Shown here: one piece after another, positions 3,339-63,341 of the stretch | Numbering within the stretch: position 1 is the first letter of the stretch | Layout: each line of letters starts with the position of its first letter | From: Candidatus Levyibacteriota bacterium | GTDB taxonomy: Bacteria > Patescibacteriota > Microgenomatia > Levybacterales > UBA12049 | NCBI GenBank assembly: GCA_016186645.1 | Contig: JACPLF010000003.1 | Coordinates: forward strand, 4,112 to 68,111 | Direction of reading: 5' to 3' | Length of the DNA stretch: 64,000 bases | Translations under genes and position numbers: made by a program | The notes under the pieces: generated by a model | Databases searched by the model: none | Told to the model about the DNA's origin: nothing | Seen by the model: the letters and a program-made list of their open reading frames with translations, nothing else

Positions 3339-4010
3339 ATGCTTTATCATGTTGAGCTGGACATTGATTTGAAAAGAAATCCATACAAAGGTTTGTACAT
3401 CGTGTTGGAAGGTATTGATGGGTCTGGCAAGACAACGCAGGTCGAGCGGCTAGCAAAATATTTTGAGAAAAAAGGAAAGAAAGTTGTGAGCACGCGGGAA
3501 CCTCGAAAAGAAGGAATAATTGGCGATATTGTGCAGCAGGTCCTTACGAAGAAAATAAAAATGTCTTCTATTGCACTCCAATATTTATTTTCAACAGATA
3601 GAGTTTTGCATCACGAGGAAGTCATAATCCCAGCTCTTAAGGCTGGAAAAATTGTTATTTCCGATCGGTGTTTCTGGTCCGCAATTGTTTATGGAATTTT
3701 GGACAGGGTGAAGAGTTACGACTCAGAAATTGCAAACTTTTTGTATATCAGCCAATCCATTCTTTCAATGTATCACCAATTTATAGTTCCTGATTTTACT
3801 TTTGCCTTAAGGGTAAAGTTGGAAACAGCATTTGCCAGAATTTCAAAAAAAGATGACAAGATAGAAATTTACGAAGACCGCGAAAAACTAAAACGGGTAA
3901 TTAAAGGCTATGATTGGCTCGCCAAGCAGTTCCCCAAAGAAATTACAGTTGTGGATGGGGAGGGAGAAGTTGAGGAAGTAACTAAGAAAATAATTGAAAA
4001 ATTGACCTAA
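3339..4010 (+). CDS. tmk: thymidylate kinase
   Basis: EGIDGSGKTTQ P-loop characteristic of dTMP kinase. Confidence 0.9.
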   Translation: MLYHVELDIDLKRNPYKGLYIVLEGIDGSGKTTQVERLAKYFEKKGKKVVSTREPRKEGIIGDIVQQVLTKKIKMSSIALQYLFSTDRVLHHEEVIIPALKAGKIVISDRCFWSAIVYGILDRVKSYDSEIANFLYISQSILSMYHQFIVPDFTFALRVKLETAFARISKKDDKIEIYEDREKLKRVIKGYDWLAKQFPKEITVVDGEGEVEEVTKKIIEKLT

Positions 4011-4118
4011 TTAACCTAATTGCTCTAATTCCTAAGTTGGAGTTTGGCCCGTCTTGCCGGCGAGGCAGGGAATTGATTAGGTTAATTAGAGTAATTAGTA
4101 ATTAGTAATTAGAAATTT
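4003..4118. repeat. family 1 MITE-like element, copy 1, between tmk and the dcd paralog
   Basis: cctaattaacctaatt ... aattgattaggttaattag TIRs. GC-rich core ggcccgtcttgccggcgaggcaggg, then (gt)aattag x4. Confidence 0.65.
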
Positions 4119-4125
4119 TAAGAAT

Positions 4126-4701
4126 ATGATTTTGGGGCCGAAAGATTTATTAAAATTAGTCAAAACAAAAAAGCTCGTTGAGGGTTTGTCAGAAAGAGAA
4201 CTGACCAATCCTGAAGGAGCTGGGTTTGATTTGCGCTTGGGGGAAGTTTATTCAATTTCCGGCAACGCTTTTTTGGGCGAAACGCATCGGAAAACCGCGG
4301 ACATAAAATTAGTTGCACAATATAGACATATAAAAAAAATAAGCGATCGCATTAAAAAATCAGATATTAAGACCCAAAAAATTGAGATTAAGCCTGGAGA
4401 TTTTTTCCTGGTCAAGACAATCGAATCGGTAAATATGCCCCAAAATTTAACCGCGAGCATAACTCCAAGGTCTACAACTTACCGCTCGGGTTTGTTTCTT
4501 CGCACGGGAAATGTGCAGCCCGGTTACTGCGGGGGATTGATTTTTGGTTTGAAAAACGAAGGACCAATAACAGTCGAAATCGAAATGGGCGCGAGATTTG
4601 TCCACATCCAGTTTTCGCAAGTCAAAGGCGGGGGAAACATGTACCGCGGCCAATGGCAAGGCGGCCGAGTAACCGCGAGAAAAAAGGAAAAACAGGTTTA
4701 G
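4126..4701 (+). CDS. dCTP deaminase/dUTPase-family paralog
   Basis: MILGPKDL...GFDLRLGEVY N-terminus and C-terminal beta-jellyroll motifs (PGYCGGL). Contains an in-frame copy of the AGCGATCGCAT element at 4342-4352. Confidence 0.7.
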   Translation: MILGPKDLLKLVKTKKLVEGLSERELTNPEGAGFDLRLGEVYSISGNAFLGETHRKTADIKLVAQYRHIKKISDRIKKSDIKTQKIEIKPGDFFLVKTIESVNMPQNLTASITPRSTTYRSGLFLRTGNVQPGYCGGLIFGLKNEGPITVEIEMGARFVHIQFSQVKGGGNMYRGQWQGGRVTARKKEKQV

Positions 4702-8274: not shown

Positions 8275-9591
8275 ATGAAGGCATTGGAAGACATTGATTC
8301 GCAGATTTTTGCACTTATAAAACAGGAAGAAAAACGCACGGCATCCACTTTGGAGATGATTCCTTCCAATAATTATCCAAGTAAAGCAGTTCTTGAGGCG
8401 CTTGGTTCAATATTAAACTACAAATATTCCGAGGGCTATCCGAAAAAACGTTATTATCAAGGGCAAAGAATTGCTGATCAAGTAGAGATTTTGGCTCAAG
8501 AGCGGGCAAAAAAACTTTTTGGTGTACCCCATGCAAATGTACAGCCATATTCAGGAAGTCCTGCAAATACAGCAGTATATTTTGCGCTTTTAGAACCTTT
8601 TAAGGACAAAATTATGGGTTTATCCCTGGCATATGGCGGACACTTAACTCACGGATCTCCTGTTAGTTTTTCCGGAAAATACTTTAAAGTTGTTCCTTAT
8701 CAATTGGGGAAGGATGGACGTTTTGATTATGAAGAGATAGAAAAATTGGCAATTGCGGAGAAACCAAAAATCATTGTTTGCGGGGCAACTGCATACCCAA
8801 GAATTATTGATTTTAAAAGATTTGGGCAAATCGCAGACAAAGTTGGGGCGTATTTGCTCGCGGATATTTCTCACATTGCAGGTTTAATTATTGCTGGAGT
8901 TCACCCATCGCCAGTTGATCACGCCCATATTATCATGACTACAACACACAAAACATTGCGAGGCCCGCGGGGGGCGATGATTATGGTTACAGAAAAAGGA
9001 CTTAAAAAAGACCCGGAATTGGGGAATAAAATTGATAAGGCGGTTTTTCCAGGTTTGCAGGGAGGACCTCATGACAATCAAACAGCGGCAATCGCAGTTG
9101 CCCTTCGGCTGGCTTCGGGTAAACAGTTTAAAGTTTACATTGAGCACGTAGTGCGAAATGCAAAAGTGCTGGCTCAAGAGCTTGTTAAATTCAATTTTAA
9201 ATTAGTAAGCGGTGGAACAGACAATCACTTATTGTTAATTGATTTGTCCAACAAAAAAGTAAATGGCGCAGTTGCGGCTTTGGCTTTGGAAGTTGCGGGC
9301 ATTGTAATTAATAAAAACGCAGTGCCGGGTGACTTAATGCCTCCTTTTTATCCTTCCGGAATTAGATTAGGAACGCCCGCAATCACAACTCGCGGCATGA
9401 AAGAGCGGGAAATGGTAAAAATTGCAAATTGGATAAATGAGACGATTAATGAAGTTTCAAATCGGGTTTTGCCTGCGAATAAAGAACAACGAAAGGAATT
9501 TTTCAAAAATTTCCGTGAAGAAGTTTTCAAAAACAAAAAACTATTACAAATCGCCAAAGAAGTGAGGGAGCTTTGCTCAAAGTTTCCTTAA
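8275..9591 (+). CDS. glyA: serine hydroxymethyltransferase
   Basis: Full-length SHMT; the PLP-lysine region is in THKTLRGPRG. Confidence 0.95.
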   Translation: MKALEDIDSQIFALIKQEEKRTASTLEMIPSNNYPSKAVLEALGSILNYKYSEGYPKKRYYQGQRIADQVEILAQERAKKLFGVPHANVQPYSGSPANTAVYFALLEPFKDKIMGLSLAYGGHLTHGSPVSFSGKYFKVVPYQLGKDGRFDYEEIEKLAIAEKPKIIVCGATAYPRIIDFKRFGQIADKVGAYLLADISHIAGLIIAGVHPSPVDHAHIIMTTTHKTLRGPRGAMIMVTEKGLKKDPELGNKIDKAVFPGLQGGPHDNQTAAIAVALRLASGKQFKVYIEHVVRNAKVLAQELVKFNFKLVSGGTDNHLLLIDLSNKKVNGAVAALALEVAGIVINKNAVPGDLMPPFYPSGIRLGTPAITTRGMKEREMVKIANWINETINEVSNRVLPANKEQRKEFFKNFREEVFKNKKLLQIAKEVRELCSKFP

Positions 9592-9673
9592 GACTTTTAA
9601 TCCGGGCATTTAATCACCAATTTTTAGAATTCAAACTGCTCTCAAAAACAAATTTAGACATCTGATTATTTAC

Positions 9674-9684
9674 AGCGATCGCAT
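9674..9684. repeat. AGCGATCGCAT (HIP1-like 11-mer) copy; five identical copies in the window
   Basis: Copies at 4342-4352, 9674-9684, 23653-23663, 34208-34218 and 40775-40785. Each continues into similar A-rich ATCA(G/T)A context. Confidence 0.7.
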
Positions 9685-9713
9685 AAAAAAATCAGATAAC
9701 TAAATGTAAATTT

Positions 9714-9867
9714 ACCCCGTTACCCAATGTCCCATCCGTTAGGATGCGGGTTTCTAGTGGCGTGAAGCGAAAATTCAATAATGCCCGGACCCGCTTCGCC
9801 CAAGCTCCCGCCTAGACTCGGCGAGGCTGGTCAGCGAGGCGAGCCGTAAGGTCGTGGGTAACGGGGT
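9714..9867. repeat. 154-bp MITE-like element with 13-bp perfect terminal inverted repeats; the interior carries a 57-mer that is also present inside dnaX
   Basis: ACCCCGTTACCCA at 9714-9726 and TGGGTAACGGGGT at 9855-9867. Interior 9788-9844 matches 25870-25926 at 55 of 57 positions. Confidence 0.7.
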
Positions 9868-9978
9868 TTACTGAATTCCTGTTATTGTAAGACTGAGGTG
9901 TCAAGCTAACACACCCCAGGGGTGTACGAGGGGAGTGTTCTGTCAGGAAAAAGTCGAGTTGAAAATGAAATCATCTTA

Positions 9979-9987
9979 TGCTATAAT
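9979..9987 (+). promoter_or_regulatory. extended -10 promoter TGCTATAAT, 8 nt upstream of the ATG at 9996 (leaderless start)
   Basis: Sequence tgctataat ccgatagt ATG. Confidence 0.5.
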
Positions 9988-9995
9988 CCGATAGT

Positions 9996-11522
9996 ATGAT
10001 AGGCACAAAGGAAGCAGTTTCTCGTACATTTCCAGAAACTCTAAGTGGAGAGCAAAACAGCTTCGTAGGTTTTATTGACCAAAATAGAGATCTTTTTGAG
10101 AGACATACTTCTTCGACTTATGAGTTAAGAGATGAACGAGATGGCTGGAGAAATTCTCCCACGATAAGTGAAGTGGCGCATAAGCACGCAGTTCTGTCAC
10201 TGCCTCTTAGGGGGGGGCATAATGCGTCTCCTCCAAACACCAGAGAATGGAAGCGGCATGAAGAGAGGATAAGAGATGCTATCGATAGGGAAATCTTTAG
10301 CAGCCCTGATGGAAAAAATACTTTGCCTGCAAAGCGACCGCCTCTTGATTCAATTTGGGCGAAAACAACTCCTTTACAAAGAGCTGAAATACAAGAATTA
10401 ATGGGCAGGACTGAAGAATTTCAAGCAGACTTCCTTGCGGCAATAGCGCCTTTAGCCGCAGAAGTTGAACAATTAAAAGAGGAATTATTTTCCAATTTCA
10501 AAAATTATCTGTTTTCAGATCCTGACGGCATTTTCGCCGTTAGAGATTTCCTAACAGATAAAAAATTCGCGTCTCAGAGAGAAACCATAAGACCTTTTCT
10601 TGCCAGTTTTGTTCAGAGTGAAGATAAGTTAGCAAAAGACGGCAAGAGAGGAATATTGGGCGAGACAGTTAAAAAGTGGGCAGATGAAATTTCGAAAAGA
10701 GTAACTCCAGTTCTTGTTGACGAATTTGTTGAGTCTATTAGAAATCCTAATGTTCTTGAATGGCTGGAATTTGCAGCAAATATGCCTATAAGCGTTCTGG
10801 GTACAACTGAGGAAAGGGATAAAGATTTGATAAGAGATAGCATTGTCAGTTTTCTTAAGAGCCGTCCGGATGTTTCTTTTTGGCCGCCAGAACTCAAAAA
10901 AGCATTATCCTCTTTTGCTTCATCTAAATATGCTACCGCGCGTTCTTCTGTAGAAAAGGGGTTAGAAGGGTTTAGAAGACCGTTGAGTTCAAAACCGGCA
11001 CCGCAGATCCATCTGGAACCAGAAAAGAAAATAGAAGGGGCGCCTGTTCAGGAAGATGCCAAAAAAGAACCAGATGATAAAAAAGGTGCATCAGAAAAGG
11101 CTGAAAAAAGAAAATATCCGATTGGGATATTGACAAAAGAAAGCGGATCGTCGCATGGGTTTGACATTAGGGTTTTAACAGAAGAGGAACTGAAAGATTT
11201 TTTACGAGAAAAGGCTGATTCTTTTGCTTCTTCGGATTTAAAAATGGCGGGAGATTTTAGAACTATAGTTGCCAGTCTGCGAGAGGATCCTTATGGGTTT
11301 GGCACAAAAAAACTCAACAACATGTCTGTTGGAATTGGTAAAACAAAAAGTTCTCCCATTCGAAGCATGGATCCTGGAAAAAGAATCGGCCTTCATCTTG
11401 AACATCCGGAATCGCAGAAAATTAGAATTGCTTATGTTATTTATGGAAGCGGAGACGATAAAGTAATTGTTATTGAAGGAATTTATAGTCATGATGATTA
11501 TGACAGTAAATTTGGAGCATAG
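9996..11522 (+). CDS. hypothetical 508-aa protein with a C-terminal RelE/ParE-like toxin fold
   Basis: C-terminal about 100 aa (LKDFLRE...DPYGFGTKKLNN...IRIAYVIYGSGDDKVIVIEGIYSHDDY) follows the RelE/ParE pattern. The N-terminal 400 aa are unrecognised. The gene is GC-richer than the flanking sequence. Confidence 0.5.
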   Translation: MIGTKEAVSRTFPETLSGEQNSFVGFIDQNRDLFERHTSSTYELRDERDGWRNSPTISEVAHKHAVLSLPLRGGHNASPPNTREWKRHEERIRDAIDREIFSSPDGKNTLPAKRPPLDSIWAKTTPLQRAEIQELMGRTEEFQADFLAAIAPLAAEVEQLKEELFSNFKNYLFSDPDGIFAVRDFLTDKKFASQRETIRPFLASFVQSEDKLAKDGKRGILGETVKKWADEISKRVTPVLVDEFVESIRNPNVLEWLEFAANMPISVLGTTEERDKDLIRDSIVSFLKSRPDVSFWPPELKKALSSFASSKYATARSSVEKGLEGFRRPLSSKPAPQIHLEPEKKIEGAPVQEDAKKEPDDKKGASEKAEKRKYPIGILTKESGSSHGFDIRVLTEEELKDFLREKADSFASSDLKMAGDFRTIVASLREDPYGFGTKKLNNMSVGIGKTKSSPIRSMDPGKRIGLHLEHPESQKIRIAYVIYGSGDDKVIVIEGIYSHDDYDSKFGA

Positions 11523-12071: not shown

Positions 12072-12142
12072 CCCGCCTAAGCTTGCTTTGCAGCTTTTCA
12101 GTATTATTCATACACGCTGCAAAGAGCGCTTTAGCGGCGGGT
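12072..12142. repeat. CCGCCTAAG...CTTTAGCGGCGG palindromic element (family 2), copy in the rpsB 5' leader
   Basis: Arms cccgcctaagc and gctttagcggcggg, with an inner gctttgcagc/gctgcaaagagc hairpin. Homologous copies at 23554-23614 and 23768-23910. Confidence 0.6.
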
Positions 12143-21599: not shown

Positions 21600-21639
21600 A
21601 TTTTTATATTTTTATTAGAATCTTTGAAGTTAGATATTA

Positions 21640-21762
21640 TTGATGTCTTTGATTCTGAATCTTTGAATTTTTGATTTTCTTGAATTCAAGATATCAATAA
21701 CTCAAGGTCAAAAACATCTCACTTCTAATTTCAAGAATTCCTTACATAAATATAGTCTTTTA
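21640..21762. repeat. family 3 palindromic intergenic element, copy C
   Basis: Homologous to 27505-27628 and 52480-52596 (tcttgaattc...atcaaa...gtcaagg...atcta...ttcaa). Confidence 0.55.
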
Positions 21763-21809: not shown

Positions 21810-22091
21810 ATGAATCCCGTTAAAGATCGCTTTTATTATGTTTACATTTTACAAAGTTTGAAGAGCAACAAATGGTATACTGGCTACACAAATGAATTAC
21901 GCAAGCGTTTTAATCAACATCAAGAAAATAAATCTACATATACAAAAGGACGAGGACCTTTTAATCTTATATATTATGAAACATCGTTGAGAGAGGAGGA
22001 CGCTATAGCGAGAGAAAGATATCTTAAAAGCGGGATGGGCAAACGATATCTTAAAAATAGATTAAAACGCTCGCTATCTTTAACGGGATGA
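21810..22091 (+). CDS. GIY-YIG family nuclease (small, UPF0213-like)
   Basis: YYVYILQS...WYTGYTNELRKRFNQH. The TATACT -10 lies 7 nt before the ATG. Confidence 0.75.
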   Translation: MNPVKDRFYYVYILQSLKSNKWYTGYTNELRKRFNQHQENKSTYTKGRGPFNLIYYETSLREEDAIARERYLKSGMGKRYLKNRLKRSLSLTG

Positions 22092-23077
22092 AAATCGTTG
22101 TAACTCACAGTTCGCCGGACATGGATGCCATAACTTCTGTCTGGCTTATCAGAAAATTTTTACCAAATTGGAGCGATGCCCTAGTTAGGTTTGTACCAGC
22201 GGGAGAAAGGTTTACTTTTCGGAAAACTCAGAATGCTCAGAGCTCCAGCGTTTCTGACGGTCAGACTATCAGACAATCTGACTCTCCGAGTTCTTCAGAG
22301 TTTTCTGAAGTTGTCGAAAATATTGGCGAGGATGAAGTTATCCATGTTGATACTGGATTGGGACCTCTGGATCATCATCAGACTGCATCGGATGAAGTAT
22401 GCGGAGCAAGCCTGACGTTTGACTTCGTCAAACGAGTTCAAAATTCAAAATTCTCGCCTCGGGGCGAAGCGGGCAAAATTCAAAATTTGGAAAGCAAAAA
22501 GTGGAACGACAGAATGAAGGCAGTAGGGAGGATGGTGAAAGTTGTTGTTGATATAGATCATTTTAAGGAAGTTTTCCGCAAGGACCCTTTGGCTGACTAT
22601 CATGAATTTGACCTTGCAGGTATTTTGGATGGGCTCAAGCTCGAGCTTCCGGGTCAAGATGAATTATATGTTGCAGAAGTTAGCAAATCTTTGGATGCAA
22701 TTTTGCATGGGTTTGAAAATAGGATTTGGGCGGAAAAAGAAATCAGGGAAAAAGGGAAAAAATTTAAAACGCGCTTTGGCCGCGGAATTGGTTTAGAGAC
22801 AATAAATGATTCGGTTGTAAAATTGGCTCAAAAAATGGGATATGTAATTGCTGTGAGAAAAGATCCAAGAAAAGGGTACGTCCGAATAAAAGTGAGGCCG
22901 GATAGTAAAATTGATTTGACTTTAGTCTACGAGAAGTTTAGAAAAATCGACCCGGATGCCACGTGGTTTCTTCATGTTTCCAAAAAAATGCTTCTCAACG
23001 GTTCGGTAAAAAATCCCAAGATGAGGTCTACCAAGCTTTCTTTGAATGACATAATTAGAGTTCTAGAAAAGATATAA
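22088..23077 (+). CDS. DHH-family phosphoesterase (nanoRNase/NrnA-like)
   Basis: HSSPDMDAITS, DTGLGPLDHHQ. Overlaps the GIY-YIG stop. Carries in-frame repeat inserts at 22261-22300 and 22452-22469. Confidence 0.75.
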   Translation: MKIVVTHSSPDMDAITSVWLIRKFLPNWSDALVRFVPAGERFTFRKTQNAQSSSVSDGQTIRQSDSPSSSEFSEVVENIGEDEVIHVDTGLGPLDHHQTASDEVCGASLTFDFVKRVQNSKFSPRGEAGKIQNLESKKWNDRMKAVGRMVKVVVDIDHFKEVFRKDPLADYHEFDLAGILDGLKLELPGQDELYVAEVSKSLDAILHGFENRIWAEKEIREKGKKFKTRFGRGIGLETINDSVVKLAQKMGYVIAVRKDPRKGYVRIKVRPDSKIDLTLVYEKFRKIDPDATWFLHVSKKMLLNGSVKNPKMRSTKLSLNDIIRVLEKI

Positions 23078-23537: not shown

Positions 23538-23553
23538 GAAGTTCCCGCCTAAG

Positions 23554-23614
23554 CTTACCGTTCGAACACGTCAGACGTGTTTCATGGAGCGCTTTAGCGG
23601 CGGGCAAGTAGTTT
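23554..23614. repeat. family 2 palindromic element, copy b
   Basis: cccgcctaagctt...gcgctttagcggcggg with an inner aacacgtcagacgtgtt hairpin. Confidence 0.6.
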
Positions 23615-23767
23615 TTATTTGATTTCCGATCAAAAGATATATGACTACAATCAGCGATCGCATAGTAATATCATACATTATCTATGATCATAGCTGTAAC
23701 GCTTGAGTGGATTAAATGGGTATTTACTCTATTTTGGGTTTGGAGTAGAATAGAAAGTGGTAACGTG

Positions 23768-23910
23768 TCCGCCTAAGTTCAGTATTCGCCTTTCCCGCCT
23801 GCAACGCTTTGCGAAGCAATGCGGGCAGGTCAATTCTATTCGCGTAAAGCGACGTGGTCGCCACGCGACTTTACGTCGAATACGGCTCATACTTCACTTT
23901 AGCGGCGGAC
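23768..23910. repeat. family 2 palindromic element, copy c (longer, with extra internal hairpins)
   Basis: tccgcctaag...cactttagcggcggac. Internal cgtaaagcgacgtgg/ccacgcgactttacg pair. Confidence 0.55.
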
Positions 23911-24155: not shown

Positions 24156-24542
24156 ATGGAGCAGGTTAATATCCCCATTTTTGTAGAAAGCAGATATAGA
24201 GTCAATAGGAAACGCATTAAACAAGCTGTTTCCAAAGTGCTAATGAAGCACGAAATCAAAGGCCCTGTGGAGGTTTCTGTTGCTATTGTTGGAGATCGGA
24301 AAATGCGCGCTTTAAGCAAAAAATATAAAGGTGAGGACAAGACAAGAAATGTTTTATCATTTTCACTGTCCGAAGGTGAATCAGCACATTTGGATAACGA
24401 AGTTTTAAGACTCGGAGACATTGTCCTGTCCTACCCGCAAGTTATAAAAGAAGCATCGGAAGAAGAAATGCTTGTGGATGATAAAATTGATGAACTCATT
24501 GAACACGGAATGCTCCACCTTTTGGGAATCAATCATGAGTGA
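24156..24542 (+). CDS. ybeY: rRNA maturation endoribonuclease YbeY
   Basis: NVLSFSL, LGDIVLSYP and HGMLHLLGINHE motifs. Confidence 0.8.
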   Translation: MEQVNIPIFVESRYRVNRKRIKQAVSKVLMKHEIKGPVEVSVAIVGDRKMRALSKKYKGEDKTRNVLSFSLSEGESAHLDNEVLRLGDIVLSYPQVIKEASEEEMLVDDKIDELIEHGMLHLLGINHE

Positions 24543-24544
24543 AA

Positions 24545-24697
24545 TTGACCTAATTGCCCTAATTAACCACGTCAAACGTGGCAGGCCTAATTTCTAAGCT
24601 GGAACTTGGCCCGCCTTGCCCGTTTCGACTCAACGAGGCGAGCCGGGCGAGGCAGGGATTTGATTAGGTCAATTAGAAATTAGAATAATTAGAAATT
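24545..24697. repeat. family 1 MITE-like element (TTGACCTAAT/ATTAGGTCAA TIRs) followed by AATTAG tandem repeats
   Basis: Homologous to 4003-4118. Confidence 0.65.
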
Positions 24698-24704
24698 TAG
24701 GTGT

Positions 24705-26291
24705 ATGGTTTTTTATCGAAAATATCGTCCGCAAAAAATAGAAGAGCTGGATAGTAAAGAAGTTAGGGACAAACTTCATAGTGTTTTGGGAAGCTCCTCT
24801 GTTTCTCATGCTTTTCTTTTTACAGGCCCCAAAGGTTTGGGAAAAACCTCAGCTGCAAGAATTGTCGCAAAAGTCCTAAACTGTGAAAAGGTGAGAAATG
24901 AGAAAGGAGAAATGAAAAATAAAGATAAAACTTCCCATCTCTCATCTCTCACTTCTCATTTCCGTGCGGTTGAGCCGTGCAATAAATGTGAACAATGCAT
25001 CTCGATTACACGCGGAACAAATCTAGACGTTTTGGAAATAGATGGTGCTTCAAATAGGGGAATAGATGAAATAAGAGATCTTAGGGAAAAAGTAAAACTT
25101 TCTCCAGCCGGGAGCCGCAAAAAAGTTTATATTATCGATGAAGTTCACATGTTAACCGCAGAAGCGTTTAATGCGCTTCTTAAAACTTTGGAAGAACCGC
25201 CAAGTCATGTTGTTTTTATTCTCTGCACAACAGAACCTCACAAAGTGCCAAGCACAATTCTGTCCCGTTGTTTACATATTCAATTTAGAAAAGCAACAGA
25301 GGCAGAACTGGTCAGATCGTTTGAAAGAATAATTAAAGCGGAAAAAATAAAAGCCGACAAAGAAGCCTTAGATTTAATCGCTAGTCTTTCAGACGGTAGC
25401 TTTAGAGACGGATCAAAACTTTTGGAAGAAATAGCTCTTTTGGCAGGACGTAAAAAAATTGCAAAAGAATTGATAGAAGAAAAATATTATGTATCAAGTA
25501 TTAAGTATCATATTAGAGCGATGGTGAAATGTTTGGATGCGAAAGACACAAAAGGAGGACTTGAACTTGTTTCAAAGCTGACAGAACAGGGCATTGACAT
25601 GAAGTTTTTTATTGAAGAATTAATACAGACTCTCCATAGTTTGTTACTTCAAAAAGTAGGGATTAAGAATGATCAAGAATTGGAAGTTCAAATTCTAGAC
25701 TTTGATATCAATGGAATCAAAAGACTGGTAGAATTATTTGCAAAAGCGCACAGCGAATTAAAATATGCGGTTTTGCCCCAGATTCCTTTGGAGCTGGTGA
25801 TTGTGGAATGGGGAATCCAGAAAACTCAGAATACTCAGCAATCCGGCAATTCTGATAATCAGACGATCAGACCCGCTTCACCGAAGCTCCCGCCTAGACT
25901 CGGCGAGGCTGGTCAGCGAGGCGAGCAATCTGATTCTCCGAGTATTCAGAAAATGGTGAAAGCACAAAAAAATGAAATACCGCTTAATGTTGCTCAGCAG
26001 AATATGATGGGGTACAGTGAGAATAATGCGTTGTGGGTCTCTTTGATAGATAGAGTGAAGGCTTACAATCATTCTATTGCCGGGGTATTGCGCGGATGCA
26101 GGATAAAAAGTTATGATGGTAAGAGTTTAATAATAGAAGCAAATTTCAAATTCCATAAAGATAAATTAGGGGAAATAAAAACACAACAGGTTTTGGAAGA
26201 AGCATGCAAAGAAATTACGAAGAAAAATGTTAAAGTAGAAGTGATGATGAAACCCGCCGTCGCTAAAGCTTTGGCGGGCGATGGGAGGTGA
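24705..26291 (+). CDS. dnaX: DNA polymerase III subunits gamma/tau
   Basis: MVFYRKYRPQKIEEL, GPKGLGKTS P-loop, a zinc module with CNKCEQC, and a box VII LSRC sensor. Carries nested GC-rich repeat inserts at 24930-24965 and 25857-25943. Confidence 0.9.
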   Translation: MVFYRKYRPQKIEELDSKEVRDKLHSVLGSSSVSHAFLFTGPKGLGKTSAARIVAKVLNCEKVRNEKGEMKNKDKTSHLSSLTSHFRAVEPCNKCEQCISITRGTNLDVLEIDGASNRGIDEIRDLREKVKLSPAGSRKKVYIIDEVHMLTAEAFNALLKTLEEPPSHVVFILCTTEPHKVPSTILSRCLHIQFRKATEAELVRSFERIIKAEKIKADKEALDLIASLSDGSFRDGSKLLEEIALLAGRKKIAKELIEEKYYVSSIKYHIRAMVKCLDAKDTKGGLELVSKLTEQGIDMKFFIEELIQTLHSLLLQKVGIKNDQELEVQILDFDINGIKRLVELFAKAHSELKYAVLPQIPLELVIVEWGIQKTQNTQQSGNSDNQTIRPASPKLPPRLGEAGQRGEQSDSPSIQKMVKAQKNEIPLNVAQQNMMGYSENNALWVSLIDRVKAYNHSIAGVLRGCRIKSYDGKSLIIEANFKFHKDKLGEIKTQQVLEEACKEITKKNVKVEVMMKPAVAKALAGDGR

Positions 26292-30561: not shown

Positions 30562-31950
30562 ATGTTAAAGATTTACAATACATTAACCCGGAAAGTGGAG
30601 GATTTTAAGCCTCTGAATCCGCCGGTTGTAAATATGTACACTTGCGGGCCCACAGTTTATGATTATCAGCATATTGGCCATATGCGGCGTTATGTTGGCG
30701 ATGACATTCTTGTCCGCACTTTGGACTTTAATAATTTCAAAGTAAAGCAGGTCATGAATATTACGGATGTCGGCCATTTGACATCGGATTCAGATACAGG
30801 AGAAGACAAAATGGAAAAGGGAGCGCGCAAATTTGGGATGAGTGTTTGGGATATCGCCAAAAAATTTGAAAAGCAATTTTTTGATTCCGCCCGCGCATTA
30901 AATATTAGGAAACCAGATATTTTGATGCATGCTACAGATTATATAAAGGAACAAATTGTTTTTATCCAGACTTTGGAAAAGAAGGGCTTCACTTACAAAA
31001 TTGATGATGGAGTATATTTTGACGCATCTAAGTTTCCGGATTACGGAATTCTGACAGGTCAGAGGTCGGAAGAGTTAAAAAAAGGAGCACGAGTAGAATT
31101 TGTTAAGGGTAAGAGAAATGTTACAGATTTTGCTCTTTGGAAGTTTTCTCCAAAAGGCGAAAAAAGACAAATGGAATGGGAGAGTCCGTTTGGCTTAGGT
31201 TTTCCGGGATGGCATATTGAATGTTCTACAATGGCAATAAAAGGCTTGGATACAGAGACTTTGGATATTCACACAGGCGGAATTGACCATATTGCAATTC
31301 ATCACACCAATGAAATTGCGCAATCAGAGGGAGCAACCGGCAGGCAATTCGTAAAATATTGGGTGCATCATAATTTTCTGCATGTTGATGGAGCGAAAAT
31401 GAGCAAGAGTATTGGTAATATTTTTACAGTTGAGGAAGTTGTCAGAAGGGGATTTGATCCATTGGCTTTAAGATATTTGTATTTGCAGACTCATTACAGG
31501 CAGGAAATGAATTTTACCTGGGATGCTTTGGAGGGAGCGCAAATTGCGTACAAAAGGTTGATTGATGAAGTTTCTAAGTTTAAAAATCCAAAAATCGGCT
31601 GCGCAGAATTTGAAGGGAAATTCTTGGACGCGATAAATGATGATTTGAATATGGCCAAAGCCTTATCTGTTGTTTGGGATTTGATCAAATCCGATTATCC
31701 GGATAGCGCCAAAGCAGAAAGCATTTTGAAAATGAATCAGGTTTTGGGTCTTGATTTGGAAAAAGCGAAAGAAAAGAAAAAGAAAATAAAAATCGTTGTT
31801 CCGCAAGAAGTGCAAATACTTATTGAAGAACGTAACAAGTTGAGAAAACAGGGGAGTTATACTCAGGCAGATCACATCCGCAACAAGATTAAAAAATTAG
31901 GTTTCAATATAAAGGATACAAAAAAGGGAGTGATAGTTGAGAAGATTTAG
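30562..31950 (+). CDS. cysS: cysteinyl-tRNA synthetase
   Basis: CGPTVYDYQHIGH HIGH motif and KMSKS. Confidence 0.95.
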   Translation: MLKIYNTLTRKVEDFKPLNPPVVNMYTCGPTVYDYQHIGHMRRYVGDDILVRTLDFNNFKVKQVMNITDVGHLTSDSDTGEDKMEKGARKFGMSVWDIAKKFEKQFFDSARALNIRKPDILMHATDYIKEQIVFIQTLEKKGFTYKIDDGVYFDASKFPDYGILTGQRSEELKKGARVEFVKGKRNVTDFALWKFSPKGEKRQMEWESPFGLGFPGWHIECSTMAIKGLDTETLDIHTGGIDHIAIHHTNEIAQSEGATGRQFVKYWVHHNFLHVDGAKMSKSIGNIFTVEEVVRRGFDPLALRYLYLQTHYRQEMNFTWDALEGAQIAYKRLIDEVSKFKNPKIGCAEFEGKFLDAINDDLNMAKALSVVWDLIKSDYPDSAKAESILKMNQVLGLDLEKAKEKKKKIKIVVPQEVQILIEERNKLRKQGSYTQADHIRNKIKKLGFNIKDTKKGVIVEKI

Positions 31951-32930
31951 TTTTTTGTTTTTAGAAATTCTAATGTTTCCTTCGCATTTTGAAACTTCAT
32001 AAGTTCTGTTCTCACATTACTTGCGTTTGGCATGCTCGCCTCGCTGAAGCTTTGGCGAAGCGGGCCGGAGATGTAGATTTTGTAGAACTTTTTCATAATG
32101 GAGAAGTTTTTAGTTTTGCCCCAAGTTTTGTCAAAAAGCGTAATGTGCGTAATTAATAATTTTAATTTTTCTTGATAAGAAATGCTTGCTGGGTTTATGG
32201 ATTTATTATAAATCCAAAGGTTGTCAAAAATTCCCCGTCCTATCATAATTCCATCAACTTTATATCTCTTGTATTTTTCCATTGCATCGTCAAGACTTTT
32301 TACATCGCCATTTCCGATAATTAGGGTTTTGACTTTCATAGCATCTCTCAATTTAACAACTTTTCCGATTTCATCCCAGTGGGCCGGAACATCTGACATT
32401 TCCGCAGCTGTCCGGCCATGAATTATAAGGCAATCAAGATTTAATCCCAGCAAAAATCTTGCCCATTTTTCTGTTTGAATATTTTTAATTCCGATTCTGG
32501 TTTTAACGCTTACAGGGAGACCACTGGCGCCCTCCCGTGTTGCCAAAATAATTTCTTTGGCAAGTGCATGGTTGTTTATTAAAGCAGCACATGAGCCTTT
32601 TTTTACAACTGATTTTTCCGGACACCCCATGTTGATGTCAATCCCATCAAAACCTCTGAGTCTTATTAATTTTGCAGTTTCAAAATAATTTTTGGGATTG
32701 TTTCCCCAAATCTGCGCAACAATCGGGTGTTCAATATCTGTAAATTTTAATCTTTTCCCAACTTTGTCCCGGCCTTTTGAACACATGCCTTCGACATTTG
32801 TGAACTCTGTAAAAAAGACATCGGGTTTTCCACATCTTGCAATTATTTGTCGGAAAACCGTATCAGTCACATCTTCCATTGGGGCCTGAATCAAAATCGG
32901 TTTTTTAAGACTAGTCCAAAAGTTCTTCAT
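31947..32930 (-). CDS. dus: tRNA-dihydrouridine synthase
   Basis: APMEDVTD..., INMGCPEKSVVKKGSCAAL motif. Confidence 0.85.
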   Translation of the reverse strand: MKNFWTSLKKPILIQAPMEDVTDTVFRQIIARCGKPDVFFTEFTNVEGMCSKGRDKVGKRLKFTDIEHPIVAQIWGNNPKNYFETAKLIRLRGFDGIDINMGCPEKSVVKKGSCAALINNHALAKEIILATREGASGLPVSVKTRIGIKNIQTEKWARFLLGLNLDCLIIHGRTAAEMSDVPAHWDEIGKVVKLRDAMKVKTLIIGNGDVKSLDDAMEKYKRYKVDGIMIGRGIFDNLWIYNKSINPASISYQEKLKLLITHITLFDKTWGKTKNFSIMKKFYKIYISGPLRQSFSEASMPNASNVRTELMKFQNAKETLEFLKTKN

Positions 32931-34046: not shown

Positions 34047-34244
34047 ATTAAATATTATATTTATTCTAAGTTTAAACTGCAATCATAAGAAAAAATAAAA
34101 ATTGCACATAAAAAAATAAGAGTTTTATACTTTTTCAGCGCGCAAGTAATACCTGCAAAGTGTTTATTAAAAGCACCAAAGACAAAATTAGGTATATAAC
34201 TACTTAAAGCGATCGCATCAAATTATTATATACGTAAATGTTAG

Positions 34245-40221: not shown

Positions 40222-40766
40222 AAGTCATAATGGTTGCGGTCTCCTCAATAAATGGCAAAATTACAAGAGGTTTGGATCCCAATATTTACTCCTGGACTTC
40301 CAAGGAAGACACGAAGTTCTTCTTCTCTTTAATAAAAAAACACAGTCTTATCGTAATGGGCTCAAAGACTTACGAAACAGTAAGAAAAGTTATTAAACAC
40401 GAAAAGGATAAATTAAGAATAGTTCTAACAAGAGAACCTAAAAAATATTCAGAAGAGGCAAAAAAGGGAATGTTGGAATTTACCAATGAAAATCCCTCAA
40501 AACTTATAAAAAAAATGGAAAGCAGGGGATATAAAAAATTGTTAATTGTTGGCGGTGGAACGATTAATACTTTATTTTTAAAATCAAAACTTGTGAATGA
40601 AATATATTTAACCTTCGAACCAAAAATCTTCGGCTCAGGAAAAAATTTAATAAAAGAAGAAAACCTTGATATTACATTAAAATTAATTAGCGCCAAAAAA
40701 CTCAATCGCCAGGGCACTACGCTTTTGAAATACAGAGTGAGTAAAATGAAAGGCTATGACATATGA
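40218..40766 (+). CDS. dihydrofolate-reductase-like (RibD C-terminal domain) protein
   Basis: MKVIMVAVSSINGKI...LIVMGSKTYE...LLIVGGGTINT. 4-nt overlap with yhhQ. Confidence 0.7.
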   Translation: MKVIMVAVSSINGKITRGLDPNIYSWTSKEDTKFFFSLIKKHSLIVMGSKTYETVRKVIKHEKDKLRIVLTREPKKYSEEAKKGMLEFTNENPSKLIKKMESRGYKKLLIVGGGTINTLFLKSKLVNEIYLTFEPKIFGSGKNLIKEENLDITLKLISAKKLNRQGTTLLKYRVSKMKGYDI

Positions 40767-40839
40767 TTATTTTAAGCGATCGCATGATAAAATCATACAT
40801 CAGAAATGTTAGATGTGACATAATTAGCTTTATTAATTT

Positions 40840-62222: not shown

Positions 62223-63341
62223 CTAAAGTTCGATAAGATTCTTTGGGGAATGGGTGAGAAGACGAGGGCCTTTCTTTTCTAAGACTACCAAATCCTCAAT
62301 CCTAACACCGCCAAGGTTTGGAATGTAAATTCCCGGTTCAATTGAAAAAACCATCCCAACTTTTAAAATATCTTTGGATTTTGGAGAGAGACGGGGCGCT
62401 TCATGAACATCGATCCCGATTCCATGACCGAGAGAATGGGGAATAGTTTTGTATCCTTTGGATATGATGTGTTCTCGGGCAATTTTATCAATTTTAGATG
62501 CCTTAATGCCTTTATCCAATTGCTTTATTGTTAAATTGCTAAATTGTTGAATTGCTTTTTTTTGCGATTCCAAAACTGTTTGGTACATCCTTTTTTGTTC
62601 GGCTGTTGGTTTTCCGAAGAAAATTGTGCGGGTCATGTCAGAACAATAATTATTTAATTTAACCCCGAAATCCAACAAAACAAACTGACCACTAGACGCT
62701 AGACGCTGATTGCTGGTTTGGTGGTGGGGGATGGCGGAGTTTTTTCCAAACGCAACAATGGGCTTAAAAGAAATATCGCCGCCTTGTTTTTTTATGAAAA
62801 ATTCTATTTCATTCGCTATTTCTTTTTCCGAGACTCCTAGTTTAATCTTCTTTAAGATATAATCAAAAGTTTTGTCGGAAAGCACGCACGCTTTTTCTAT
62901 TTTTGAAACTTCTTCTTTATTCTTTATTGCACGTAAGTTATTTAAACTAAAATGATTTAAATCATTAAAGCGAGAAGATAATTTTTTATGTTCCAAAAAG
63001 GTAAGATTATTTCCCTCAAAGCCCATGCGTTTGACGCGATATTTTTTGATAAGCTGTTTAAGCGCTTTTTCAAAAGATAGTTTTGAAGAAATCTCAATCG
63101 ATTTAAAATTATGTACCAATTTTTTTATGGCTTGAGAATATCTCCCGTCAGTCAAAATATATTGTTGATTTTTGGCCCGCTTCGCCGCGAGGCGAGTAAT
63201 AAATAAATATGCTTCGCGTTCTTCTTTGGAAAACCCTGAATAATTTGTCAGATATACTATATTGGAAAAAGATGAAATTAAAACTGCATCCAATTTCTTT
63301 TTTGCAAATTCCTGTTTAAGTTTTGCAAGAGGAGTACTCAT
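62223..63341 (-). CDS. pepP: Xaa-Pro aminopeptidase (M24B)
   Basis: Pita-bread HSLGHGIGIDVHE and metal ligands. Contains in-frame AAATTGTT repeats (62513-62545) and a GC-rich CGCTTCGCCGCGAGGCGAG insert (about 63176-63200). Confidence 0.85.
   Translation of the reverse strand: MSTPLAKLKQEFAKKKLDAVLISSFSNIVYLTNYSGFSKEEREAYLFITRLAAKRAKNQQYILTDGRYSQAIKKLVHNFKSIEISSKLSFEKALKQLIKKYRVKRMGFEGNNLTFLEHKKLSSRFNDLNHFSLNNLRAIKNKEEVSKIEKACVLSDKTFDYILKKIKLGVSEKEIANEIEFFIKKQGGDISFKPIVAFGKNSAIPHHQTSNQRLASSGQFVLLDFGVKLNNYCSDMTRTIFFGKPTAEQKRMYQTVLESQKKAIQQFSNLTIKQLDKGIKASKIDKIAREHIISKGYKTIPHSLGHGIGIDVHEAPRLSPKSKDILKVGMVFSIEPGIYIPNLGGVRIEDLVVLEKKGPRLLTHSPKNLIEL

Follow-up and report, generated by a model that had tools for sequence, protein, structure and literature searches.

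A perfect inverted repeat downstream of glyA in a Levybacteria (CPR) genome bounds a 154-bp GC-rich segment that is real but shows no sign of being a multi-copy MITE; the right half of its interior is instead a short hairpin repeat carrying a 24-nt mini-element, CCCGCCTAGACTCGGCGAGGCTGG, that recurs unchanged in genes and spacers of many CPR-type metagenome contigs. The sequence analysed, hereafter the window, is a 64,000-nt stretch of contig JACPLF010000003.1 (assembly GCA_016186645.1), and loci retrieved for comparison are designated by L numbers. In the window, glyA occupies positions 8275-9591 (Pfam SHMT), a 508-aa ORF follows at 9996-11522, and rpsB and tsf start at 12083 and 13003, respectively.

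We first aimed to verify the inverted repeat and to evaluate its sequence context. The left arm ACCCCGTTACCCA (9714-9726) and the right arm TGGGTAACGGGGT (9855-9867) are exact reverse complements separated by 128 nt, and the bounded segment has 60.4% GC compared to 38.0% for the window. A perfect 13-nt inverted repeat with at least 8 G/C and arms no more than 300 nt apart appeared in 1 of 100 first-order Markov simulations of the window, indicating that it is more than chance. The 57-mer at 9788-9844 matches 25870-25926 at 55/57 positions, where it lies in-frame in the linker of the dnaX ORF (24705-26291) and encodes RPASPKLPPRLGEAGQRGE. The observation made in an earlier note, of a 154-bp unit with perfect 13-bp ends and an interior shared with dnaX, is therefore confirmed. 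The 404-bp gap between the glyA stop codon and the ATG at 9996 also contains, as the note had listed, an AT-rich palindrome centred on AGCGATCGCAT (9651-9698) and a copy of a hairpin repeat termed family 4 (9895-9928, + strand; three copies in the window and one in the relative L010 at 4242-4273). The palindrome occurs in five copies in the window (4319-4366, 9651-9698, 23630-23677, 34185-34232 and 40752-40799) and may be an operator or a bidirectional terminator; just upstream of the segment, over 9651-9705, it is centred on GCGATCGC, and the copy at 9652-9705 forms 27-nt arms. Two side statements of the note, that the downstream 508-aa gene is GC-richer and a RelE fusion, were not confirmed. 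The gene is barely GC-richer (38-45%) and its product has no RelE/ParE hit, or any other match, in Pfam. The protein belongs to a small family (124 representatives at E up to 0.001) whose C-terminal domain of about 110 aa also occurs alone and fused to other N-termini, and a sub-threshold HigB hint appeared in only one stand-alone homologue of this domain.

Next, we asked whether the segment is a MITE, as the note had proposed on the understanding that an absence of further copies and of empty sites in relatives would count against it. Overall, this interpretation was only partly supported: the inverted repeat, the shared 57-mer and the variability of the locus hold, whereas the MITE reading is not supported. 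The arms have no other copy or solo end in the window at up to 2 mismatches. A scan of 185,579 GTDB species genomes with an 11+11-nt arm pattern returned three hits, in Chitinophagaceae, a proteobacterium and Verrucomicrobiales, where about one is expected by chance; their interiors are unrelated and look like arrays of a CCCGTTACCCA-like site. IMG/VR yielded no hit for the arm pair or for the 22-nt core of the 57-mer, and neither the arms nor the left half of the segment matched anything in 0.8 Mb of related CPR-type contigs. The remainder of the source genome was not searched, and we thus consider MITE status unlikely rather than excluded. With regard to empty sites, four relatives with 79-84% identical GlyA retain glyA and rpsB-tsf, but each carries different genes in between (a desaturase with a thioesterase, a ketoacyl synthase, or unrelated ORFs) that begin within about 25 nt of the glyA stop codon. 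None carries the segment and none offers a comparable site, such that the comparison does not settle the question, although it does support the suggestion that the glyA-rpsB interval is a variable spot. TTTA occurs at both ends (9711-9714 and 9867-9870), but it overlaps the arm ends and lies in AT-rich DNA, which is weak evidence for a target duplication and leaves this point undecided. The size of the segment, its lack of a transposase gene (five of six reading frames contain stops) and its terminal inverted repeats are those of a MITE, and the perfect GC-rich 13-nt repeat, which is unusual (window-wide p about 0.01), fits a transposon end equally well; the nested repeats would then be passengers of an element mobilised by an IS elsewhere in the genome. 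No IS was seen near the segment, although the ORFs of the window were not screened for transposases.

We also considered whether the segment could be a structured RNA or a terminator. Both strands fold better than shuffled sequences (+ strand, -70.9 kcal/mol, z -3.7; - strand, -73.8 kcal/mol, z -4.5), the 97 nt that remain after removal of the 57-mer still fold well (z -4.1), and GC-rich islands in AT-rich genomes are typical of structural RNAs, in line with an sRNA or a glyA 3'-UTR element closed by a 13-bp helix and later invaded by the 57-mer. However, Rfam scans of the whole window at gathering thresholds and of 9590-10000 at E up to 10 gave nothing usable, with only a junk RNA-OUT hit at E 9.7 outside the segment, ARAGORN found no tRNA or tmRNA, and inspection by eye revealed no SRP, 6S or Y-RNA signature motifs. 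No homologue exists in the relatives examined, so covariation was not assessed, and more than a third of the segment is a repeat that also occurs inside genes. The only promoter-like site (9959-9987, + strand; TTGAAA-17-TATAAT, 11/12, with a TG extension) lies downstream, ending 8 nt before the ATG of the 508-aa gene, which suggests a leaderless mRNA; this stretch is 77% conserved upstream of an unrelated gene in L010 (3463-3528). An RNA gene appears improbable to us. We regard a selected terminator or mRNA-stabilising hairpin for glyA, with incidental repeats, as similarly doubtful. The segment starts 122 nt after the glyA stop codon, upstream of the next gene's promoter, and other genes in the window end in GC-rich hairpin elements (4000-4096 and 24542-24680). 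On the other hand, a consensus scan of 9400-10100 found no terminator-like site, the stem is followed by GGGGTTTACTG rather than a U-tract, a 128-nt loop is not a terminator geometry, and relatives have no such element after glyA. A retron msr/msd with a1/a2 repeats was rejected because the 508-aa protein has no reverse-transcriptase domain, and an integron attC site was rejected by eye because the arms read GTTACCC...GGGTAAC, the wrong order for the R''(RYYYAAC)...R'(GTTRRRY) core sites.

To define what the interior is, we scanned metagenomes with the 22-nt core of the 57-mer, which returned at least 120 stretches. Across 119 unique contexts only the 24 nt of CCCGCCTAGACTCGGCGAGGCTGG (9807-9830 in the segment, + strand) are shared, with a weak G/A preference before the unit and C/T after it and otherwise unrelated flanks. 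Host contigs have 31-59% GC, and the taxonomy of most of them is not known. The scan detects exact matches only and overstates uniformity; among unselected extra copies in the same loci, diverged variants predominate. An adapter or assembly artefact was rejected because the 24-mer lies in-frame between contiguous halves of the same genes, occurs in assemblies from JGI, ENA, NCBI and Logan, and is confirmed for the window copy in five independent runs. The Logan contigs from these runs carry the identical sequence and stop at 9831 or start at 9815, exactly where a 31-mer graph branches at the 43-nt stretch shared with dnaX.

The rest of the 57-mer belongs to a second family, a hairpin repeat of roughly 33 nt that we term H1 (CCGCTTCGC-loop-GCGAGGCGA; arms at about 9790-9800 and 9833-9844), the loop of which carries the 24-mer. 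H1 occurs alone in 19- or 28-nt forms and with the 24-mer in 43- or 52-nt forms, the 57-mer being the 28-nt form plus the 24-mer, with 52 nt between anchors. The 24-mer sits at different loop positions and in both orientations, so it entered H1 several times independently. As DNA, the predicted hairpins have -3.5 kcal/mol (24-mer) and -7.5 kcal/mol (H1). Of the five H1 copies in the window, four are in-frame in ORFs: the dnaX copy (25870-25926, + strand; 24-mer at 25889-25912), a 28-nt form without the 24-mer at 32036-32063 (- strand; ORF 31947-32930, peptide PLRQSFSEAS), a 19-nt form at 63177-63195 (+ strand; ORF 62223-63341, peptide TRLAAKRAK) and a short form at 22454-22472 (- strand; ORF 22088-23077). 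The ORFs at 31947-32930 and 62223-63341 were read by eye, without a family search, as dus-like and as an aminopeptidase. The DnaX linker of Levybacteria is itself hypervariable, and in the aligned homologues (window 25780-25990) different lineages carry different peptides that look repeat-derived (INADxKADEHG, FARASADKP, SFPPASAPS).

Flanks of the 24-mer form stems about three times more often than in shuffled controls (15 vs. about 5, and 15 vs. 4.7 in a second analysis), and the order of outer inverted repeat, H1 and 24-mer recurs with different outer repeats in L017 (12 nt) and L024 (11 nt), which points to local hairpins rather than a transposon family; the 154-bp segment fits this pattern. 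The 24-mer is also nested in the loop of a different hairpin repeat, GTCATTCCCGC...GCGGGAATGAC, in L045, L072, L074, L130 and L132. Other palindromic structures in the window include units of the form AATTGACCTAATT...AATTAGGTCAATT that start right at stop codons and enclose GC-rich hairpins (4000-4096 and 24542-24680), the second being about 60 nt longer because of an extra GC-rich insert, another example of nesting. A further hairpin family begins with CCGCCTAAG and ends with CTTTAGCGGCGG (12073-12137, 23545-23606 and 23770-23910); one member lies across the annotated start of rpsB and may be a leader, and another is a 146-nt GC-rich unit with its own terminal repeat. In the spacer before ORF 22088-23077, nested long-range inverted repeats (17 nt at 94% and 15 nt at 93%) span about 276 nt (21814-22089) next to a 123-nt long hairpin (21618-21740), which could be a structured RNA or another palindrome pile; Rfam gave only junk miRNA-type hits.

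We then examined whether the 24-mer moves and is translated. Of 121 copies, 62 lie inside open stretches of at least 150 codons, in all four stop-free frames, adding eight amino acids in the form of PPRLGEAG, ARLDSARLA, PASPSLGG or SLAESRR(A). Where both flanks are open for at least 60 codons, 46 copies are in open frames and 3 in stop frames, against a 2:1 expectation without selection, which indicates translation and disfavours ribosomal bypass or RNA removal of the insert. Ten tested hosts are bona fide TypA, Def, TrpRS, a tyrosine recombinase (Xer), iPGM, RNase III, TIM, a P-type ATPase, prepilin peptidase and a release factor (RF), and in eight of the ten (TypA, Def, TrpRS, Xer, iPGM, TIM, RF and the P-type ATPase) the insert falls within the Pfam match.

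FolD provides a clean empty site. The FolD of L020 carries the insert, while relatives 86-88% identical outside the insert (85-86% overall) lack exactly eight residues, and at the DNA level ..TTGAAAGA|CAAAAAGATA.. compares with ..TTGAAAGA|24-mer|CAAAAAGATA.., with no duplication and at most 1 nt of ambiguity. Among 120 FolDs, 96 are empty at this position and five, from four lineages, carry the insert, mostly with empty nearest neighbours. About a dozen carry a related 21-nt GC-rich unit at the same site (YCCRCGCCAKGGCGGGGCRAG; peptides such as PRHGGAS or PRQGGAS; L138 at 960-979, and L140), including one that is 93% identical to a 24-mer carrier. The 24-mer is identical over 24/24 nt in the three sequenced lineages (L020, L057 and L139), whose flanks are about 70% identical, which requires repeated insertion, gene conversion or nucleotide-level constraint; recurrent filling of this site could also reflect ancestral presence plus precise loss. 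An AlphaFold model of the filled FolD (mean pLDDT 91.8) places the insert in a low-confidence coil (pLDDT 62) between helix 135-147 and strand 164-167.

Together, these data lead us to favour, with moderate confidence, a reading of the 154-bp segment as a nested pile of GC-rich palindromic repeats that built up in the glyA 3' spacer, with a local 13-bp stem as the outermost layer, H1 within its right half and the 24-mer in the H1 loop. A pile of repeats is demonstrated for the right half only, as the arms and the left half (9727-9787), which includes a predicted inner hairpin CCCATCC-GTTA-GGATGCGGG at 9731-9750, match no repeat family; the left half has no match in the window or in the loci retrieved, and it and the origin of the arms are unexplained. 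What moves is much smaller than 154 bp, a 24-nt unit nested in a hairpin repeat of roughly 33 nt. We regard it as established by the analysis that the 24-mer is a discrete unit gained or lost as exactly 24 nt without target duplication, that it sits in unrelated places in many distant, CPR-type genomes, that it prefers, though not exclusively, the loops of other hairpins, and that copies in genes are kept in-frame and translated. That it is selfish DNA moved in trans by an unidentified enzyme recognising the small hairpin, probably on single-stranded DNA as in REP/RAYT or IS200/IS605 peel-and-paste, is our inference. No mobilising gene was found: a rough tblastn search with an IS608 TnpA query not drawn from a database record, a weak test, returned nothing in 0.95 Mb, and as whole genomes were not covered, association with a RAYT (Y1 HUH) gene is neither supported nor ruled out. 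The only larger element carrying the 24-mer, a 2.1-kb insert between rplU and recR in L016 (764-2869) with 100-nt inverted repeats at 98% identity that each end in the 24-mer, was considered as an autonomous parent, but its two ORFs, which look paralogous by eye, have no recognisable domain. For the 154-bp segment itself, no function beyond a stable hairpin at the 3' end of glyA is indicated.

More tentatively, the 24-mer may be an undescribed mobile element, among the smallest known to us, that spreads across CPR-type lineages, is inserted and possibly excised precisely, without target duplication, in hairpin loops and AT-rich DNA by an enzyme not yet recognised, is tolerated in essential genes as an 8-residue loop and repeatedly hits the same site, as in FolD; the 154-bp segment would then be a fossil record of successive nestings. 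Full-text literature searches for the sequence, its reverse complement, the four peptides and CPR/Patescibacteria palindromic elements found no description. CPR bacteria are thought to have streamlined genomes that are poor in mobile elements, and a 24-nt unit that writes itself into essential genes across lineages would be a new example of selfish DNA shaping proteins, as well as a handle for finding an unknown activity that makes precise, scar-free, hairpin-directed insertions. In practice, these repeats break short-read assemblies, as seen for the Logan contigs, and create recurrent 'low-complexity' peptides in CPR protein databases that could mislead homology searches and alignments.

Compared to known systems, the 154-bp unit shares its size, terminal inverted repeats and spacer location with bacterial MITEs (Correia, ERIC, Chunjie and others), but we found no family of copies, no clear target duplication and no related IS, and its interior is built from other dispersed repeats. 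Mitochondrial GC clusters, double-hairpin elements and byp elements of fungi are likewise ultra-short (about 25-50 nt) GC-rich palindromic mobile units in AT-rich genomes that also land in coding regions, but they are organellar, and byp elements are bypassed by the ribosome, whereas the frame statistics here indicate translation. Like REP/REPIN elements mobilised by RAYT (IS200/IS605-like Y1 HUH transposases), the 24-mer and H1 are short, dispersed, GC-rich imperfect hairpins that lack terminal inverted repeats, with no target duplication at the FolD site; a single-stranded hairpin is the presumed substrate. However, REPs (20-40 nt) are extragenic, species-specific and tied to a RAYT gene, whereas half of the 24-mer copies are inside ORFs, the sequence is shared across distant genomes, there is no GTAG head, and no Y1 transposase was detected in the contigs searched. 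Functionally, the 24-mer behaves most like the Rickettsia palindromic elements (RPEs; PMC10969869), palindromic selfish repeats in a small AT-rich genome of a host-dependent bacterium that are inserted in-frame into unrelated housekeeping genes, translated as a conserved extra peptide and also found in spacers, with no transposase known for either. RPEs are about 100-150 bp and confined to Rickettsia; sequence homology to their families was not compared, but the unit here, at 24 nt (33 or 57 nt when nested), is about six times shorter, occurs in CPR-type hosts, is identical across genomes whose orthologous flanks are only about 70% identical, and nests in other hairpins.
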